Shown: positions 2,977 through 14,827 of the stretch, piece after piece
How the letters are laid out: every line of letters begins with the position of its first letter
Numbering within the stretch: position 1 is the stretch's first letter
Source: a virus
DNA: 20,317 nt
Strand: one strand, 5' to 3'
UHGV virus genome: UHGV-1756682
Position numbers and translations under genes: made by a program
Notes under the pieces: model-generated
What the model was told of the DNA's origin: nothing
Seen by the model: only the letters and a program-made list of their open reading frames with translations
The model's database searches: none

Positions 2977-3001
2977 TAAAAAAGCCCTCACACTGGAGGG
3001 C
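2977..3001 (-). terminator. rho-independent terminator on the leftward transcript
   Basis: Minus-strand sense reads GCCCTC-CAGTGT-GAGGGC followed by TTTTTTT: a 6-bp GC-rich stem (plus 2984-2989 and 2996-3001) and a 7-T tract (plus 2977-2983 as A). Confidence 0.7.
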
Positions 3002-3320: not shown

Positions 3321-3350
3321 ATGACAAAAATGAAGGCCGACTATGCGGCC
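3321..3350 (-). terminator. tL1-like terminator candidate after the N-proximal gene
   Basis: Minus-strand sense GGCCG-CATAGT-CGGCC followed by TTCATTTTTGTCAT (stem plus 3335-3339 and 3346-3350). The stop codon of the 207-aa gene lies in the loop. Confidence 0.5.
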
Positions 3351-3964
3351 TCGGAAGGAAGTCCAATCATCTTATTCAAATCTTCTACCCGTAAAGCAGG
3401 AAGTGCTGTACTTGCTTTATCTGCTTCTTTTGGTAGCAACTCTTTGCTTTCAGGCCAAACTTCAATAAGTCGCTTAACTGTTGTGACTGAGTTCAAAGCA
3501 GCCCATACATTTGATTCGATATCCTTTTTCTTGGCTTCAAGTTTTTGTTGCAATGCGCAGATTTCATCAAACCTTTTTGTTATTTCGTGTTCTGCGTCAA
3601 ACATGCATTTATCTTTTTCTGGGGTGGGTAGCAATATATCTTCGCCGTTGCCGTCTTTCCCATATGAATACCAGCCAACCCTTCTGCCAGATACAGTCAG
3701 ATAAATTGAAGTAGAACGAACATCGCATGAGTAAAATGAACATCCCATCTTTTCAAGTTCTTCACTTATAGCTACTAACTTGGATGATAACTGATCCACT
3801 TCCTCAGTTTTCTTTTTCCCGCCAAACGCAACAACTCTGGCGTCAAGTGCAAGCTGATTCTTTAACTTTGTTACTTCTTCAAGTTCAATGAAAACCCCAG
3901 ACTTAATTAAAGCGTTACGAGCGATTTTCTCTTTCATTCTCGTAGTTAAGCGGATTGATGACAT
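3341..3964 (-). CDS. hypothetical protein (207 aa), first gene after N in the PL operon
   Basis: Track ORF 3341..4024; preferred start ATG 3962-3964 with GAGAGG 7 nt upstream. No TM segments seen and no family recognised. Confidence 0.6.
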   Translation of the reverse strand: MSSIRLTTRMKEKIARNALIKSGVFIELEEVTKLKNQLALDARVVAFGGKKKTEEVDQLSSKLVAISEELEKMGCSFYSCDVRSTSIYLTVSGRRVGWYSYGKDGNGEDILLPTPEKDKCMFDAEHEITKRFDEICALQQKLEAKKKDIESNVWAALNSVTTVKRLIEVWPESKELLPKEADKASTALPALRVEDLNKMIGLPSEAA

Positions 3965-3975
3965 ATTAATTCCTC

Positions 3976-4275
3976 TCAAATAAGTGGTTTGCTGCCTAAT
4001 TTCATTTTCTGGCGACCAACACAAGTCACACCAATTTCACTGCGTGGCTTGCGGTAGTAAATACGGTTCTGTTTACGCTCGACTTCTTCTGCCTTCTTGC
4101 AGCGAAGGCTTCCGAGTGATGCTGCTTTGTCTGCTCTGACGCAACCAGAGAGCTTTAGCGCAATTTTTCGCGCCAGTCGCTGCTCTTGCATTGCCTGCTC
4201 ACGTTGAGCCTGTCTGCGTGCTCTGCGGCGATTTCTGGCGTTATCGTCAGCCAGATATGTAATGACTACTGCCAT
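3976..4275 (-). CDS. N: N-type transcription antiterminator
   Basis: C-terminus NRIYYRKPRSEIGVTCVGRQKMKLGSKPLI closely matches lambda N (...TWYSKPGERGITCSGRQKIKGKSIPLI, from memory). N-terminal arginine-rich motif NARNRRRARRQAQREQ. ATG 4273-4275 with GGAGG 5 nt upstream. Confidence 0.85.
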   Translation of the reverse strand: MAVVITYLADDNARNRRRARRQAQREQAMQEQRLARKIALKLSGCVRADKAASLGSLRCKKAEEVERKQNRIYYRKPRSEIGVTCVGRQKMKLGSKPLI

Positions 4276-4381
4276 GTTGACCTCCGATGATTGACTTTGG
4301 CGGTGACGCGCCGGGTGCTTATCTTTCGGTTGCCGTCATGCAGCTGCACTTCACGTCACCCCAAAGCCAACTACTCTTTGG

Positions 4382-4424
4382 TTCCCGCATTTCGGCGGGA
4401 CAATCCCATCAATGTTAAAGAGCC
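4382..4424 (-). promoter_or_regulatory. nutL (boxA plus boxB)
   Basis: Minus-strand sense GGCTCTTTAAC (boxA, plus 4414-4424), a 13-nt spacer, then TCCCGCCGAAATGCGGGAA (boxB hairpin, plus 4382-4400). Both elements recur identically at nutR. Located between PL and N. Confidence 0.7.
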
Positions 4425-4469
4425 TGCCAATCTGTTCCGTTTGGCTTCCAGCGTCCTGCTGATGGCTAA

Positions 4470-4556
4470 AGAATACTGTAGGTATTTTATTGTGTAAATA
4501 CCCAAGGTATTTATTTTTGGTGAAATAATGATAAGCAAATGAATACAAAGGATATT
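4470..4556 (-). promoter_or_regulatory. OL operators and PL promoter
   Basis: Three 15-bp AATAC-N5-GTATT palindromes: OL1 4472-4486, OL2 4497-4511 and a weaker OL3 4542-4556. Candidate PL on the minus strand: -35 TTTACA (plus 4493-4498), 17-bp spacer, -10 TATTCT (plus 4470-4475), overlapping OL1 and OL2. Confidence 0.6.
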
Positions 4557-4643
4557 TATTTTTTCGGTGTCTTCTTGTTCAGTGTTTTTTTATGCGGGAT
4601 ATGTGAAGTGGATCCCGATAGCTATTGCTGCCGGGATTATGGG

Positions 4644-5012
4644 TTAGTCAGCGAAGGTTAAGACGAGAATTACCTTAATGATGTCTGCTACAACAGACAC
4701 GGCCATAGATAAACCAAAGACGATCCAAGCCATAGAGATGTCTTCACTACCATCGTATAGCGTTCCGTAATCACTGGTGTAAGGCGTAAATGTCGCGCCT
4801 TGATACAACAGGTATAAGCTTGAACCATAGAGGATAAATGCAGATATCCATTGTATTGCTATGATCACCAGAATCATGAAACGAGCTGATCTATGCGCCC
4901 AAGCCTGGCTTATTTTTTCTGATAGAGATTTCGCAATAAAAGCATGCGCTAAGCCGTAAATTGTCGATATTGCCAACATCCCCAAAAAGCTTGCTATAGC
5001 GGTTCCAACCAT
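4644..5012 (-). CDS. small integral membrane protein in the rex position (candidate lysogen-expressed exclusion or conversion protein)
   Basis: Track ORF 4644..5033; preferred ATG 5010-5012 with AAGGGG 6 nt upstream, 18 nt after the cI stop on the same strand. Three long hydrophobic segments. No similarity to lambda RexB seen. Confidence 0.6.
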   Translation of the reverse strand: MVGTAIASFLGMLAISTIYGLAHAFIAKSLSEKISQAWAHRSARFMILVIIAIQWISAFILYGSSLYLLYQGATFTPYTSDYGTLYDGSEDISMAWIVFGLSMAVSVVADIIKVILVLTFAD

Positions 5013-5029
5013 ATTCGCCCCTTGCGTGA

Positions 5030-5746
5030 TCAAACCAGCCTTAGTTTTGTCTCAATTGCAACGCCTATAATCTTGCAGTTTCCATTGATTGGCACGAGAG
5101 GCCATGCAGGATTAAGTCCCTTGAGGTATTTATTTCCGCCGTCGATTATCAGCTTCTTGAATGTTGCTTCGTTAGAGTCAGAAAGTTTTGCTATGACCAA
5201 GCTGCCGTTGATCGCCTCCCTTCCGGTATCGAAAAGAACGAATGTTCCCTCTGGAATGCTTAACCCAACCGGTGCCGTCATTGAATCACCTTCCACTTTA
5301 AGCCAGAACGCATTACCTTGAATATGCGCGTCAGACTCAAGCCAAACATCTATGTCTTTAATGGTGTATGGTTCGCATGCTTCACACCACGAGCCAGCCT
5401 GGATACTGCTTAACACCGGATACCTCTTTCCTGCTCTGTATTCCCCTGCATACCTTACGTTGGCATCGCTCTTAAGGCTTTCTGCCTGTTCTGCAACCTT
5501 GGCAGCAATTGACTGGCTAAAATCAGCAATTGAGACTTGCAACAATCGTGCAAAACCAGATGCAACCTCAACGTTTAGCGCGTTTCTGCCATTAAGATAA
5601 TGCCCTACCGCTCCTTGGGTGATACCCAGTTCATCAGCAATTGAGTATTGGGTTATTCCCAATTCTTTCTTTTTTGACTCATACAAAGCCTTAAGCCGCT
5701 TAGCGTCTTCCAGCTGTTCTGTCGTCAGTGATTTTTTATTTTCCAT
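5030..5746 (-). CDS. cI: CI repressor (HTH plus LexA-like S24 autopeptidase domain)
   Basis: N-terminus MENKKSLTTEQLEDAKRLKALYESKKKELGITQYSIADELGITQGAVGHYLNG parallels lambda cI. C-terminal domain has the Ala-Gly site (SSIQAGSW), GDSM serine and FKKL lysine. Confidence 0.9.
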   Translation of the reverse strand: MENKKSLTTEQLEDAKRLKALYESKKKELGITQYSIADELGITQGAVGHYLNGRNALNVEVASGFARLLQVSIADFSQSIAAKVAEQAESLKSDANVRYAGEYRAGKRYPVLSSIQAGSWCEACEPYTIKDIDVWLESDAHIQGNAFWLKVEGDSMTAPVGLSIPEGTFVLFDTGREAINGSLVIAKLSDSNEATFKKLIIDGGNKYLKGLNPAWPLVPINGNCKIIGVAIETKLRLV

Positions 5747-5752
5747 AGCTTA

Positions 5753-5823
5753 ATTCTAATAGCTAAGGTACTTAAACTAAAAATACCCTGAGTATTGATT
5801 GCTTTTAATACCTGTAGTATTCT
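5753..5823. promoter_or_regulatory. OR operators with divergent PRM and PR
   Basis: OR2 5782-5796 AATACCCTGAGTATT, OR1 5807-5821 AATACCTGTAGTATT, weaker OR3 5758-5772. PR candidate: -35 TTGATT 5795-5800, 17-bp spacer, -10 TATTCT 5818-5823. PRM -10 candidate TAGAAT on minus (plus 5753-5758), only about 7 nt from the cI ATG, which suggests a leaderless cI mRNA as in lambda. Confidence 0.6.
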
Positions 5824-5852
5824 TTGTTCATGGTTAATAACGGAGAGTGCAT

Positions 5853-6047
5853 ATGATTCGAATGACACTTGCCGATTACGCCAAAATCCATGGACAGGCT
5901 AAAGCAGCCAGTGACTTTGGTGTAATCCAGTGCGCTATCAGCAAGGCCATTCTGGCAGGCCGTAACATCATGGTTACGGTAAAGCCTGATGGCAGTGTGA
6001 TTGGAGAGGAAGTTCGTCCTTTCCCAAGCAACAAGAAAAACAAATAG
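5853..6047 (+). CDS. cro: Cro repressor
   Basis: [64 protein letters not shown] parallels lambda Cro. ATG 5853 with GGAG 7 nt upstream; the track GTG at 5847 sits inside the SD. Confidence 0.85.
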
Positions 6048-6053
6048 TAACAC

Positions 6054-6098
6054 CGCTCTTTAACAGTCATGGTCCTCATTCCCGCCGAAATGCGGGAA
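6054..6098 (+). promoter_or_regulatory. nutR (boxA plus boxB)
   Basis: CGCTCTTTAAC at 6054-6064, a 15-nt spacer, then TCCCGCCGAAATGCGGGAA at 6080-6098 (stem TCCCGC/GCGGGA, loop CGAAAU). Identical to the nutL elements. Confidence 0.7.
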
Positions 6099-6155
6099 TA
6101 CAACGCGCATAAGTTGATGCTCATAACTTCTTATTTGTTAAGGAAATACTTACAT

Positions 6156-6434
6156 ATGGAACTTACAAGTACTCGCAAGAAAGCGAATGCAATTACAAGC
6201 AACATCCTGAATCGAATTGCTGTACGTGGTCAGCGAAAGGTTGCCGACGCGTTAGGGATTAATGAATCGCAAATTTCGCGATGGAAAGACAGCTTCATCC
6301 CAAAAATGGGAATGCTTCTGGCTGTTCTTGAATGGGGTGTTGAAGACGAGGAGTTGGCGGAACTGGCTAAGCAAGTAGCCAGAATGCTGACAAAAGAAAA
6401 AGCCCCGAAGAACGGCGAATTCTTCGAGGCCTGA
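6156..6434 (+). CDS. cII: CII transcriptional activator
   Basis: ESQISRWKDSFIPKMGMLLAVLEWGV closely matches lambda CII (KSQISRWKRDWIPKFSMLLAVLEWGV). Start ATG 6156 with AAGGAAA 9 nt upstream is preferred over the track start at 6069, which lies in the nutR/tR1 region. Confidence 0.85.
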   Translation: MELTSTRKKANAITSNILNRIAVRGQRKVADALGINESQISRWKDSFIPKMGMLLAVLEWGVEDEELAELAKQVARMLTKEKAPKNGEFFEA

Positions 6435-8843: not shown

Positions 8844-8874
8844 GCAGGCCTGCTGGTAATCGCAGGCCTTTTTA
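8844..8874 (+). terminator. rho-independent terminator (tR2-like) between replication and nin genes
   Basis: Perfect 8-bp stem AGGCCTGC (8846-8853) / GCAGGCCT (8862-8869), 8-nt loop, followed by TTTTT. Confidence 0.7.
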
Positions 8875-11679: not shown

Positions 11680-12545
11680 CGTTCTCAGTAAAAACCATTC
11701 CAGACATGCTCGTTGAAGCATATGGAAACCAGACAGAAGTAGCACGCAGACTGAAATGTAGTCGCGTTACGGTCAGAAAATACGTTGATGATAATACGTT
11801 GATGATAAAGACGGGAAAATGCACGCCATCGTCAACGACGTTCTCATGGTTCATCGCGGATGGAGTGAAAGAGATGCGCTATTACGAAAAAATTGATGGC
11901 AGCAAATACCGAAATATTTGGGTAGTTGGCGATCTGCACGGATGCTACACGAACCTGATGAAAAAACTGGAGACGATAGGATTCGACACCAAAAAAGACC
12001 TGCTTATCTCGGTTGGCGATTTGGCTGATCGTGGTGCAGAGAACGTTGAATGCCTGGAATTAATCACATTCCCCTGGTTCAAAGCTGTACGTGGAAACCA
12101 TGAGCACATGATGATTGATGGCTTATCAGAGCGTGGAAACGTCAATCACTGGCTGCTTAATGGCGGTGGCTGGTTCTTTAATCTCGATTACGACAAAGAA
12201 ATTCTGGCTAAAGCTCTTGCCCATAAAGCAGATGAACTTCCGTTAATCATCGAGCTGGTGAGCAAAGATAAAAAATATGTCATTTGCCACGCCGATTATC
12301 CTTGTAACGAATACGAGTTTGGAAAGCCAGTTGATCATCAGCAGGTAATCTGGAACCGCGAACGACTCAGCAACTCACAAGACGGGATCGTGAAAGAAAT
12401 CAAAGGCGCGGACACGTTCATCTTTGGTCATACGCCAGCAGTTAAACCACTCAAATTTGCCAACCAGATGTATATCGATACCGGCGCAGTGTTCTGCGGA
12501 AACCTCACATTGATTCAGGTACAGGGAGAAGGCGCGTGGGCATAA
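11676..12545 (+). CDS. ninI: NinH-NinI fusion ORF; C-terminal 224 aa is a NinI-type Ser/Thr protein phosphatase
   Basis: N-terminal 37 aa match lambda NinH; from [24 protein letters not shown]...GNHEHMM the sequence is a lambda-PPase-like metallophosphatase. The two are joined in one frame by a 14-bp tandem duplication at 11781-11808. NinI keeps its own ATG 11874 with GGAG 8 nt upstream. Confidence 0.75.
11781..11808 (+). repeat. perfect 14-bp tandem duplication (TACGTTGATGATAA x2) inside ninH
   Basis: Read directly: 11781-11794 and 11795-11808 are identical. Confidence 0.9.
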
Positions 12546-13054
12546 GAGAACTAAACCTCACCAAAGAACAGCATGAGTGGCTGAATGGCTGGCTTGAACT
12601 GTGGGGCGCATGGGTTTATTCAGGTCGTCTGGAAAAGCGCATGAGCAGCGTAATAGCGAAGTTCATGGAGAGCGTAGAGCCGGGAAGAGTTATGACAAGG
12701 CCAATGTGTAATGATGATGATGGAATGTTGATTTCTCAGGTCGTCGATTCCGTCATGTACATTGACAAGAAAGCCTTTGGCATCCTCCTCAGCTACTACG
12801 CTCATGGTTCATCTAAGCGAGCAATTGCATCCTACTATCACGCGACTGCAAAGCCACGCAAGATGTGTGGACGTGGTGGCGAGGGATGGAGAAAACCTTC
12901 ACTGGCAACCTGTAGAAACGAAATTGACGACATCCTGAAAGCGTCGTTATTTGTTTTGTACCAGCCAATGCAAAATGCTTTCAAAATGCGTAAACGTGTT
13001 GAGAAAGTTAAGCATGTTGCTGTTAAAAGCCTTGACATGCAATTATCCATTTAG
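12536..13054 (+). CDS. Q: late antiterminator Q (QuuD/phage 82-like type)
   Basis: Position immediately before PR' and the lysis genes. Shares ELWGAW..., CNDDDGM and SYY features with E. coli QuuD as I recall it. GTG start 12536 overlaps the ninI end. Confidence 0.75.
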
Positions 13055-13061
13055 CCATAAT
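13032..13061 (+). promoter_or_regulatory. candidate late promoter PR'
   Basis: TTGACA 13032-13037, 18-bp spacer, CATAAT 13056-13061, overlapping the Q stop as in lambda. Confidence 0.4.
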
Positions 13062-14771: not shown

Positions 14772-14802
14772 TTTTTTTGCAAATCACAAAGTCCATTTAA
14801 TG

Positions 14803-14827
14803 AGCCTCGCGATGCGGGGCTTTTTTA
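14803..14827 (+). terminator. intrinsic terminator after the lysis cassette
   Basis: GC-rich stem GCCTCGC 14804-14810 / GCGGGGC 14814-14820 with one G-U pair, followed by TTTTTT 14821-14826. Confidence 0.6.

Follow-up and report, generated by a model that had tools for sequence, protein, structure and literature searches.

HK620-type nut sites and a candidate N-boxB specificity pair in the early region of virus genome UHGV-1756682

The early region of virus genome UHGV-1756682 carries the same small hairpin on both of its arms. This raises the questions of whether the two hairpins belong to nut sites and, if so, whether the N protein encoded nearby is paired with a boxB of its own kind. The stretch of DNA that was analyzed, called the window here, is 20,317 nt long. 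An earlier note on this DNA, made from the letters alone, had described identical nut sites on both arms with a boxB unlike that of lambda, and had suggested a distinct N-boxB specificity pair. The main elements of the early region are the following.

4470 to 4498, minus strand: pL-like promoter (TTTACA, 17-nt spacer, TATTCT) from the promoter scan, coinciding with the annotated pL and OL1 of HK620
3976 to 4275, minus strand: N gene, 99 amino acids, a three-part mosaic
5030 to 5746, minus strand: cI repressor of the HK620 type (HTH_3 and Peptidase_S24)
5853 to 6047, plus strand: cro (Pfam Cro, E = 3.6e-26)
6156 to 6434, plus strand: cII (Pfam Phage_CII, E = 1.1e-42), the first gene 3' of nutR
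8846 to 8869, plus strand: intrinsic-terminator-like site after the P/DnaB gene, in the tR2 position (terminator scan, consensus match only)
3333 to 3352, minus strand: intrinsic-terminator-like site in the pL operon, downstream of N (terminator scan, consensus match only)
2984 to 3001, minus strand: second intrinsic-terminator-like site in the pL operon (terminator scan, consensus match only)

The terminator tR1, between nutR and cII, was transferred from the HK620 annotation.

The hairpin lies within a 19-mer, TCCCGCCGAAATGCGGGAA, and the motif search proposed in the earlier note was run on the window. Exactly two copies were found, at 4382-4400 (minus strand) and 6080-6098 (plus strand), with no further match at up to three mismatches; two matches occurred in 0 of 100 shuffles. 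The 8-nt core of the 19-mer, CCGAAATG, was restricted to the same two sites. Exact matches to the boxA GCTCTTTAAC were found at 4414-4423 (minus strand) and 6055-6064 (plus strand), and each copy of the 19-mer stands 13-15 nt 3' of its boxA when read along the pL or pR transcript. The earlier claim that both elements are sense-oriented, downstream of PL as well as of cro, is thereby confirmed, with the left site between the pL-like promoter and N and the right site between cro and cII. No third nut site was found in the window by the 19-mer, core, or boxA searches. An extra GCTCTTTA occurs at 667-674, where it is antisense to the pL transcript. The parts of the two sites are given below.

4414 to 4423, minus strand: nutL boxA, exact GCTCTTTAAC, with flanking bases GGCTCTTTAACA; identical in HK620, mEpX2, and phage 21
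4401 to 4413, minus strand: nutL spacer, 13 nt, ATTGATGGGATTG, read from the sequence
4382 to 4400, minus strand: nutL boxB hairpin (5' arm 4400-4395, loop CGAAAU 4394-4389, 3' arm 4388-4383), within the annotated nutL of HK620
6055 to 6064, plus strand: nutR boxA, GCTCTTTAAC, with flanking bases CGCTCTTTAACA, starting 8 nt past the cro stop codon
6065 to 6079, plus strand: nutR spacer, 15 nt, AGTCATGGTCCTCAT
6080 to 6098, plus strand: nutR boxB hairpin (loop 6086-6091), within the annotated nutR of HK620

The only parts shared by the two sites are the boxA, GCTCTTTAACA (11 nt), and the boxB (19 nt). The description of the sites as identical therefore stands for these two elements and not for the spacers, which are unlike in both length and sequence. 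Both sites have the makeup of a nut site: a boxA of the form CGCTCTT(T)A lies 5' of a hairpin, the stem-loop follows within about 8-20 nt, and the two sense copies fall in the pL-N interval and the cro-cII/tR1 interval, a layout that agrees with the annotation of HK620, phage 21, and lambda. The order of boxA, spacer, and hairpin also matches P22-type phages. No family reached its gathering score in an Rfam scan of the whole window.

Much of this could be anchored in a known phage, since coliphage HK620 matches the region at 98% identity. The GenBank record of HK620 (AF335538) marks a putative nutL and nutR as well as pL, tR1, N, and the operators OL1-3 and OR1-3; the source is Clark et al. 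(2001, J Mol Biol 311:657), as cited in that record and in PMC2629481. The HK620 nutL and nutR features map to 4383-4424 and 6054-6099 of the window with identical sequence, supporting the earlier identification of these elements as nut sites, and the mEpX2 GenBank record labels the nutL boxA sequence as a putative boxA. HK620 and the window are the same in boxA, spacers, and boxB on both arms, in the arginine-rich motif (ARM), and, at 97% identity, in N residues 1-64; cI, cro, cII, pL, and the operators are of the same type. They differ at the C-terminus of N, which is of the H-19B/933W type in HK620 (CLPNVAIYAAGYRKSKQLTAR) and of the phage 21/lambda type in the window (GVTCVGRQKMKLGSKPLI), and in the genes downstream of N. 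Judged by sequence, the two sites are the ordinary nutL and nutR of the HK620 type, annotated in HK620 since 2001, and they very probably serve an HK620-type N antitermination module. What the present comparison adds is support for a distinct specificity, with N-boxB binding as a putative function. In the searchable literature, we found no biochemical study of the HK620-type ARM/boxB class and no paper printing or testing its boxB or ARM peptide.

The boxB is predicted to form a G+C-rich stem of 6-8 bp with a 6-nt loop, and at nutR the stem can be extended to 8 bp (6078-6085 with 6092-6099). For a 21-nt hairpin, the folding energy was -10.5 kcal/mol (z = -3.8), a value reached by none of 200 shuffles. 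The 66-nt contexts of the sites were unremarkable (z = -0.3 and -0.9), so that only the isolated hairpin stands out. Between the arms, boxA and boxB are 100% identical not only in the window but also in every close relative, as they would be if a recent duplication or gene conversion had produced the likeness and the hairpin were not under selection. We consider this highly improbable. Spacers and flanks are not the same on the two arms, the boxB is invariant across about 150 copies in close relatives despite variable adjacent bases, and distant relatives have unlike stems on their two arms with the same loop, which is the pattern expected under selection on structure and loop.

Because the boxB of close E. 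coli relatives never varies, evidence for covariation rests on more distant loci. Among 19 distinct hairpin variants, 94.7% of the cells were paired, and changes on both sides were seen in five of the seven pairs. Double-change cells numbered 26, compared to 8.9 in shuffles, and the observed score was reached by 0 of 500 shuffles, while register-slid controls were only 35-62% paired. Compensatory stem substitutions were found in relatives from Cronobacter, Serratia, and Pantoea. All relatives identified through protein homology had the same loop, C-CGAAAU-G. Many of the distant covariation loci were found by DNA patterns that fix the loop and the closing pair, and one such pattern also fixed the A-U pair adjoining the closing pair. 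The matches listed for the genome-wide pattern GCTCTTTAA-N9-21-RCCGAAATGY numbered at least 120 and were mostly due to chance, in phyla unrelated to the hosts of such phages; once a hairpin and a phage context were required, at least seven loci were left that were judged real, in Escherichia, Serratia, Pantoea, two Rosenbergiella, one MAG contig, and one contig without an N gene. Four matches to a pattern with a changed third stem pair were judged to be chance and were excluded from the covariation set. The earlier note had named loss of the hairpin in related phages as evidence against its reading; the hairpin is instead kept as a structure, and its loop is invariant in the relatives identified through protein homology.

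At the DNA level, the arms of the stem are a perfect inverted repeat of 6 bp, and the hairpin is G+C-rich in the manner of a terminator stem. On these grounds, the hairpins might be palindromes in the DNA to which a protein of the phage or host binds, or might serve as terminators or attenuators, and not be RNA bound by N, a reading to which we give very little credence. As terminators they were rejected because neither copy is followed by a T-run and neither was called by the terminator scan. As for a DNA palindrome, the loop is asymmetric and the order of boxA, spacer, and hairpin is kept in the transcription sense on both arms, and the HK620 repressor operators (OL1-3 and OR1-3) lie elsewhere. 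Also, 12 G-U wobble cells occur among the stem variants; they can pair only in RNA of the sense strand and fit a hairpin of such RNA.

If the hairpin is the target of N, the N protein should be considered alongside it. N is an intrinsically disordered protein. In the window, its reading frame starts 107 nt downstream of boxB and has three parts: an ARM module (residues 1-33), a middle region (34-64) common to phage 21, VT1-Sakai, and HK620, and a C-terminus of the phage 21/lambda type (65-99). The last 35 residues are 57% identical to lambda N, which agrees with the lambda-like C-terminus proposed earlier. The ARM is indeed a different one, DNARNRRRARRQAQREQ compared to DAQTRRRERRAEKQAQW in lambda. 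It contains DNARNRRRARR, and the N proteins found to carry the core DNARNRRRA[RK]R have C-termini of at least three unrelated types. The features of this segment are as follows.

4177 to 4248, minus strand: ARM codons, residues 10-33, DDNARNRRRARRQAQREQAMQEQR, from the translation
4276 to 4371, minus strand: N leader, predicted to fold with a long-range stem of about 20 bp
4176 to 4411, minus strand: specificity cassette (boxB, N leader, and ARM codons), the sole block diverging from phage 21 in the pairwise alignment

The left arm was compared to that of phage 21. Phage 21 has a gene order like that of the window, its pL transcript start region and boxA are identical, and GCTCTTTAAC is its annotated boxA-L and boxA-R. 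Positions 4473-4412 of the window, which include boxA, are 100% identical to phage 21, and 4174-3976 are 98% identical; between these flanks lies the cassette of about 235 bp. The N leader within it is homologous (about 75% identical to phage 21) and has GGCTTTGGGGTG in common with the lambda N leader. The window N and phage 21 N agree at about 95% identity over residues 34-99, and at 95% over residues 37-99. In contrast, the phage 21 boxBs are unrelated to those of the window (nutL CUCAAC-CUAACC-GUUGAG; nutR UCACC-UCUAACCG-GGUGA), and its ARM, GTAKSRYKARRAELIAERR, is in detail unrelated as well. The window thus differs from the phage 21 boxB class, defined by a loop with CUAACC(G) together with the ARM GTAKSRYKARRAELIAERR, in both loop and ARM. 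The comparison amounts to a clean natural experiment on nutL-N specificity: since boxB and the ARM are the sole differences in a near-identical nutL-N segment, the specificity determinants would be narrowed down to some 20 nt in the RNA and some 25 residues in the protein.

ARM and boxB types were then compared across loci. All 75 distinct loci with an HK620-type ARM had HK620-type boxBs on both arms, and all 60 loci with a phage 21 ARM had phage 21 boxBs on both arms; no mixed locus was found among the 75 and the 60. Seven loci with the HK620-type ARM had no rightward boxA of any kind in the sequence covered, suggesting that nutR is out of range or that the prophage is rearranged, and none of these seven had a foreign boxB. 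The interval between the two boxBs, 1.1-2.8 kb, holds at least seven different immunity regions. BoxB type follows the N ARM and not the cI/cro type, which is a further argument against a DNA palindrome. This co-occurrence without exception on both arms, together with the precise swap of boxB and ARM relative to phage 21, supports the suggestion of a distinct N-boxB specificity pair. The ARM/boxB unit appears to move between phages as the cassette of about 235 bp plus a matching right-arm boxB, possibly recombining at the conserved boxA.

The loop places the window near lambda and P22. It is most likely a GAAA (GNRA) tetraloop with a C on its 5' side and a U on its 3' side that are unpaired or mismatched, and most likely a sibling of the GNRA-like pentaloops of lambda (GAAAA/GAAGA) and P22 (GACAA), unlike the loop of phage 21. 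Indirect support for the tetraloop comes from a Rosenbergiella prophage with a C-GAAA-U nutR, in which the nutL is predicted to fold as a 7-bp stem with a GAGA tetraloop closed by C-G. Lambda is like the window in its boxA-spacer-boxB architecture, in the place of the sites after pL and cro, and in the GAAA loop core, and the two ARMs have an A-x-x-RRR-x-RR core in common. The boxBs differ as the earlier note had claimed: those of lambda are GCCCUGAAGAAGGGC and GCCCUGAAAAAGGGC, with five loop bases (GAAGA or GAAAA) closed by U-A, whereas the window has four (GAAA) between C and U. The lambda class, a GNRNA pentaloop with U-A closure, does not describe the window boxB, in which C-GAAA-U is set between C-G pairs with no fifth base. 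Lambda boxA is CGCTCTTA, while the window has the longer GCTCTTTAACA form; Trp18 of lambda N aligns with Ala; and the window N has an 11-residue N-terminal extension absent from lambda. The N protein of P22 (gene 24 protein) starts with MTVITY, similar to MTVVITY/MAVVITY of the window class, and both contain an N-A-[KR]-x-R-R motif. In the P22-type nutR, C-GACAA-C, a GNRA-like core is likewise flanked by non-pairing bases. However, the P22 loop has five bases (GACAA), its ARM continues differently (RRHERRRKLAIERD), and its N middle region and C-terminus are unrelated to those of the window. The window also falls outside the P22 class (GACAA with the ARM GNAKTRRHERRRKLAIERD), as its loop core is GAAA and its ARM differs after RR.

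These likenesses bear on whether the sites have a separate specificity at all. Lambda or P22 N might cross-react with them, making the window boxB a variant of the same recognition class. The window ARM aligns with those of lambda and P22, with the Ala and all the RRR-x-RR arginines in common, the N-terminus of the window N resembles that of P22 N, and the GAAA core conforms to the GNRA consensus, which is mimicked by the pentaloop of lambda (PMC12027372). Partial recognition by lambda or P22 N is possible since the ARM keeps the lambda core and the loop keeps GAAA. In addition, the C-GAAA-U nutR of the Rosenbergiella prophage stands alongside a different ARM, suggesting that this loop can occur with more than one ARM. 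Lambda N, however, recognizes a GNRA-like fold and requires the U7-A13 closing pair, contacting directly U7, the 5' base of that pair, and it prefers a five-base GNRNA loop (PMC12027372); here the 5' base is C, the 3' base is U, and the core has four bases. The Ala aligned with Trp18 is a second point against cross-reactivity, and so is the lack, among the loci compared, of any that combines an HK620-type ARM with another boxB type. Every locus identified through protein homology keeps the C and U around GAAA, which suggests that both are read. Overall, we think it unlikely that the sites lack a separate specificity. The stronger proposal, that the HK620-type ARM (DNARNRRRA[RK]R...QRE) reads a GAAA tetraloop with its invariant C and U as a fourth natural N-peptide/boxB pair, orthogonal to those of lambda, P22, and phage 21, is put forward tentatively, as a possibility with nearly as much for it as against it.

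A mechanism for the HK620-type module can be proposed on the model of characterized N proteins, in which the ARM binds boxB, NusB/E bind boxA, and the C-terminus of N enters RNA polymerase (PMC8632103). Nascent pL or pR RNA would expose the linear boxA, GCUCUUUAACA, to be bound by NusB/S10, along with the boxB hairpin and its C-GAAA-U loop. The arginine-rich helix of N (residues about 10-33) would bind this hairpin, the middle region would recruit NusA, and the lambda/21-like C-terminus would reach RNA polymerase. The resulting complex would be expected to read through tR1 and downstream terminators on both arms; the site at 8846-8869, in the tR2 position, is one that N-modified polymerase would need to pass. 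Specificity would reside in the pair of ARM and boxB loop, with the left arm inheriting the cassette and the right arm a matching boxB after the conserved boxA.

The annotation of the genome is unchanged by these findings, as nut sites of this kind are expected in the early region of a lambdoid phage. An orthogonal pair could provide a compact peptide-RNA tethering tool beside lambda N/boxB, and would be a natural case of an ARM recognizing a true GNRA tetraloop. The annotation of this N class could also be improved, since the RefSeq name of the HK620-type N in most E. coli genomes is "hypothetical protein" and Pfam N_peptide scored 19.8 bits on the window N, under its cut-off of 27.9. The HK620-type ARM/boxB class is common in E. 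coli, with the cassette present in 510 of 5,426 complete genomes (about 9%).

The window has a standard lambdoid immunity region, as seen from its ORFs and Pfam hits. It contains the following features:

3976-4275, minus strand: N, 99 aa
4382-4400, minus strand: boxB 19-mer TCCCGCCGAAATGCGGGAA, exact match
4414-4423, minus strand: boxA GCTCTTTAAC
4498-4470, minus strand: pL-like promoter
4644-5033, minus strand: small hydrophobic ORF, 129 aa, like HK620 hkaS, no Pfam hit
5030-5746, minus strand: cI
5853-6047, plus strand: cro
6055-6064, plus strand: boxA GCTCTTTAAC
6080-6098, plus strand: boxB 19-mer TCCCGCCGAAATGCGGGAA, exact match
6156-6434, plus strand: cII
after cII, plus strand: O and DnaB-type P

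The hydrophobic ORF between cI and pL occupies the position of lambda rexB and other lysogen-expressed accessory genes. Taken as a whole, the window is mosaic and P22-like (best match vB_EcoP-611R6, 65% coverage), and the 2.6 kb around the nut sites are 98% identical to coliphages HK620, HK630, HK140 and mEpX2 and several Stx phages. The HK620 GenBank record, AF335538, annotates pL, OL1-3, OR1-3, tR1 and N, and also 'nutL; putative N-utilization leftward' and 'nutR; putative N-utilization rightward'. In an alignment with the window, both sites come to lie at 4383-4424 and 6054-6099 and are identical in sequence. The element was therefore already recognised in 2001, at coordinates nearly equal to those of the earlier note; it is an ordinary, previously annotated pair of nut sites, the presumed landing sites for N on the pL and pR transcripts.

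On both arms, boxA, spacer and hairpin follow each other 5' to 3' along early transcription, which bears out the sense orientation described in the earlier note. Its term "identical nut sites" holds for boxA and boxB but not for the spacers, which measure 13 and 15 nt and are unlike each other in sequence; identity between the arms is limited to boxA (11 nt, counting the A after it) and the 19-nt hairpin. A search for further copies of TCCCGCCGAAATGCGGGAA with up to three mismatches, a check the note had proposed, turned up none in the rest of the 20.3 kb, and two matches did not occur in any of 100 shuffles. The hairpin alone folds at -10.5 kcal/mol (z = -3.8), while the z-scores of its 66-nt contexts were unremarkable, as expected for such a small element. 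A terminator or attenuator would be another reading of the hairpins, but neither copy is followed by a T-run and the terminator scan made no call at them.

The 18-nt boxB core was invariant in about 150 copies from close E. coli relatives, although neighbouring bases vary. Divergent relatives found by protein homology had altered stems and the same loop:

Cronobacter prophages, nutL: UCCCGC-CGAAAU-GCGGGG
metagenome contig L166, nutR: CUCCGC-CGAAAU-GCGGAG
E. coli prophage L167, nutR: CUCCAC-CGAAAU-GUGGAG

Scanning by DNA pattern extended the set with variants in Serratia fonticola, Pantoea piersonii, Rosenbergiella and many IMG/VR contigs. In three of the patterns, loop and closing C-G pair were preset, in one of them also the adjacent A-U pair, and thus loop invariance is independent evidence only in the protein-found loci; the outer five stem pairs were free in every pattern. 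When 19 distinct variants were scored against a 7-pair helix, 94.7% of cells were paired and five of the seven pairs had changes on both sides. Double-change cells numbered 26, against 8.9 ± 2.6 in shuffles (0 of 500 reached the observed value), and register-slid controls paired in only 35-62%. The hairpin is conserved in these related phages, as the note's proposal requires: the protein-found loci keep the loop, and the stem covaries. Twelve cells were G-U wobbles, which fit a sense-strand RNA rather than a DNA palindrome. A DNA operator is further contradicted by the asymmetric loop, by a hairpin orientation that follows transcription and by a boxB type that goes with N and not with cI/cro. 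Neutral duplication of the two copies is likewise opposed by distant relatives, which carry different stems on the two arms with the same loop. An unexpected internal mismatch was conserved in one nutR variant, GCTCCCAC-CGAAAT-GTCGGAGC, which has C-C at the third stem pair in more than 36 copies (L288, L290-L334); a Pantoea nutR (L289) has C-A there.

The segment from pL to N was aligned with phage 21 (OL657228, a record that annotates boxA-L, nutL, boxA-R and nutR), giving the following comparison:

4473-4412: transcript start region and boxA, 100% identity
~4411-4381: remainder of spacer and boxB hairpin, replaced
4380-4276: N leader, about 75% identity
4275-4176: codons of the arginine-rich motif (ARM), about 50% identity, gapped
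4174-3976: remaining N, 98% identity

The divergence is a single contiguous block of ~235 bp comprising boxB, leader and ARM, and phage 21 has CUCAACCUAACCGUUGAGAC where the window carries GUCCCGCCGAAAUGCGGGAAC. In many IMG/VR loci, the right arm has a cro end and boxA like those of phage 21 (CGGCATAAGCAAATTGCTCTTTAACAGT), and the spacer and boxB that come immediately after are of HK620 type instead of phage 21 type. Since the junction lies immediately after boxA on both arms, the conserved boxA may serve as a homology patch where modules recombine.

The N leader (4276-4371, minus strand), which runs from nutL to the start of N, folds into a long-range stem of ~20 bp. It shares GGCTTTGGGGTG with the lambda N leader, differs from phage 21 by compensatory changes and looks like the counterpart of the lambda RNase III/N-autoregulation stem. 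Among IMG/VR loci L003-L082, nutL boxB and ARM are 131 nt apart in the window type and 218 or 335-355 nt apart in others, which have leader insertions, some with an extra hairpin (GCCCCTC-AGTTC-GAGGGGC).

N itself is a three-part mosaic. It has residues 1-33 (MAVVITYLADDNARNRRRARRQAQREQAMQEQR) in common with HK620 N, and residues 34-64 (LARKIALKLSGCVRADKAASLGSLRCKKAEE) with N of HK620, phage 21 and VT1-Sakai. Residues 65-99 are of phage 21 type and share homology with the C-terminus of lambda N (35 residues, 57% identical), whereas HK620 and VT1-Sakai N end in the H-19B/933W-type CLPNVAIYAAGYRKSKQLTAR. The three parts correspond to the accepted layout of an RNA-binding ARM, a NusA-binding middle and an RNA-polymerase-binding C-terminus (PMC3526286; PMC8632103). 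The lambda ARM aligns through A-x-x-RRR-x-RR, with Ala in place of lambda Trp18, and P22 N has a similar N-terminal extension. A different ARM with a lambda-like C-terminus, as the note had it, is thus what the protein has. The ARM core [IY]L[AV][DS]DNARNRRR[AVI][RK]R recurs on N proteins whose middle regions are of several unrelated kinds and whose C-termini are of at least three types (...GRQK.K..S.PLI, ...CLP..A.Y.AG.RKS...TAR and ...VRKD..HIIK). With the more distant ARM SPNSRTRRKARRATQRE, CGAAAU loops are still found on both arms.

Co-occurrence was scored in an IMG/VR sample with 80 loci each for window N and phage 21 N, with distinct loci typed by ARM and each arm's boxB. The HK620-type ARM had HK620-type boxBs on both arms in 75 distinct loci, the phage 21 ARM had phage 21 boxBs on both arms in 60, and no classified distinct locus was mixed. 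A few loci had no detected nutR; these are not counterexamples because the rightward boxA, when searched for, was also missing from their available DNA. In one IMG/VR locus, L033, the N frame continues upstream (MPFCTISDGCATYKAAPSEVNMTVVITY...) and 3 kb contain neither nutL nor nutR; this locus looks like a rearranged or truncated prophage. N lies about 1.3 to >2 kb from nutR, and the DNA from one boxB to the other, 1.1-2.8 kb long, forms at least seven clusters by sequence. The pairing therefore spans different cI/cro regions and is not mere hitch-hiking with a single immunity type. On the window N scaffold, nearly all N-termini in the best 120 of 322 protein matches belong to the two ARM classes, and the few exceptions appear truncated or mis-started.

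Lambda N reads a GNRNA pentaloop, which has one extruded base and adopts a fold resembling the GNRA tetraloop, and requires a closing U-A pair, with direct contact to the U (PMC12027372). The loop contexts compare as follows:

lambda: U-GAAGA-A and U-GAAAA-A
P22-type nutL: U-GACAA-A
P22-type nutR: C-GACAA-C
window element, both arms: C-GAAA-U

The window boxB is thus unlike lambda's, and its loop is most simply read as a true GAAA tetraloop whose flanking C and U cannot pair standardly. This reading is supported by Rosenbergiella collisarenosi L276, which combines a C-GAAA-U nutR, ~1.4 kb to the right of N, with a nutL predicted to fold as a 7-bp, C-G-closed stem around a GAGA tetraloop. L276 N has a different ARM (NAKKRCKQRRIERRKLERE; MNAKKRCKQRRIERRKLERE), making this the sole case of a C-GAAA-U loop untied from the HK620-type ARM; it may be a second ARM class reading true GNRA tetraloops. 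The window pair almost certainly has a specificity separate from that of phage 21, and likely, though less surely, one separate from those of lambda and P22. The earlier note's observation is confirmed, and comparative sequence evidence supports its proposal of a distinct N-boxB specificity pair.

The nut sites were already known from the HK620 record, and the ARM/boxB class is common in E. coli, with the 250-bp cassette present in 510 of 5,426 complete genomes. In E. coli RefSeq genomes, PGAP mostly names this N 'hypothetical protein', and Pfam N_peptide scores 19.8 bits, below the 27.9 cut-off, indicating that a common N class is under-annotated. An Rfam scan gave no family for the element, and no paper printing the boxB or ARM sequence was found in the searchable literature.

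The pL operon continues immediately downstream of N with an Nmad5 gene (nucleotide modification associated domain 5; PF18757, E = 4.7e-71; 3341-3964, minus strand), whereas HK620 has a different gene, hkaQ, at this place. A near-consensus promoter at 13032-13061, plus strand (TTGACA, 18-nt spacer, CATAAT; 11/12 match), is probably the late promoter pR'; it lies at the end of ORF 12536-13054, which lies where a Q gene would be expected. Strong terminator-like hairpins at 14802-14822 and 8846-8869, both plus strand, follow lysis-region ORFs and the P/DnaB gene.
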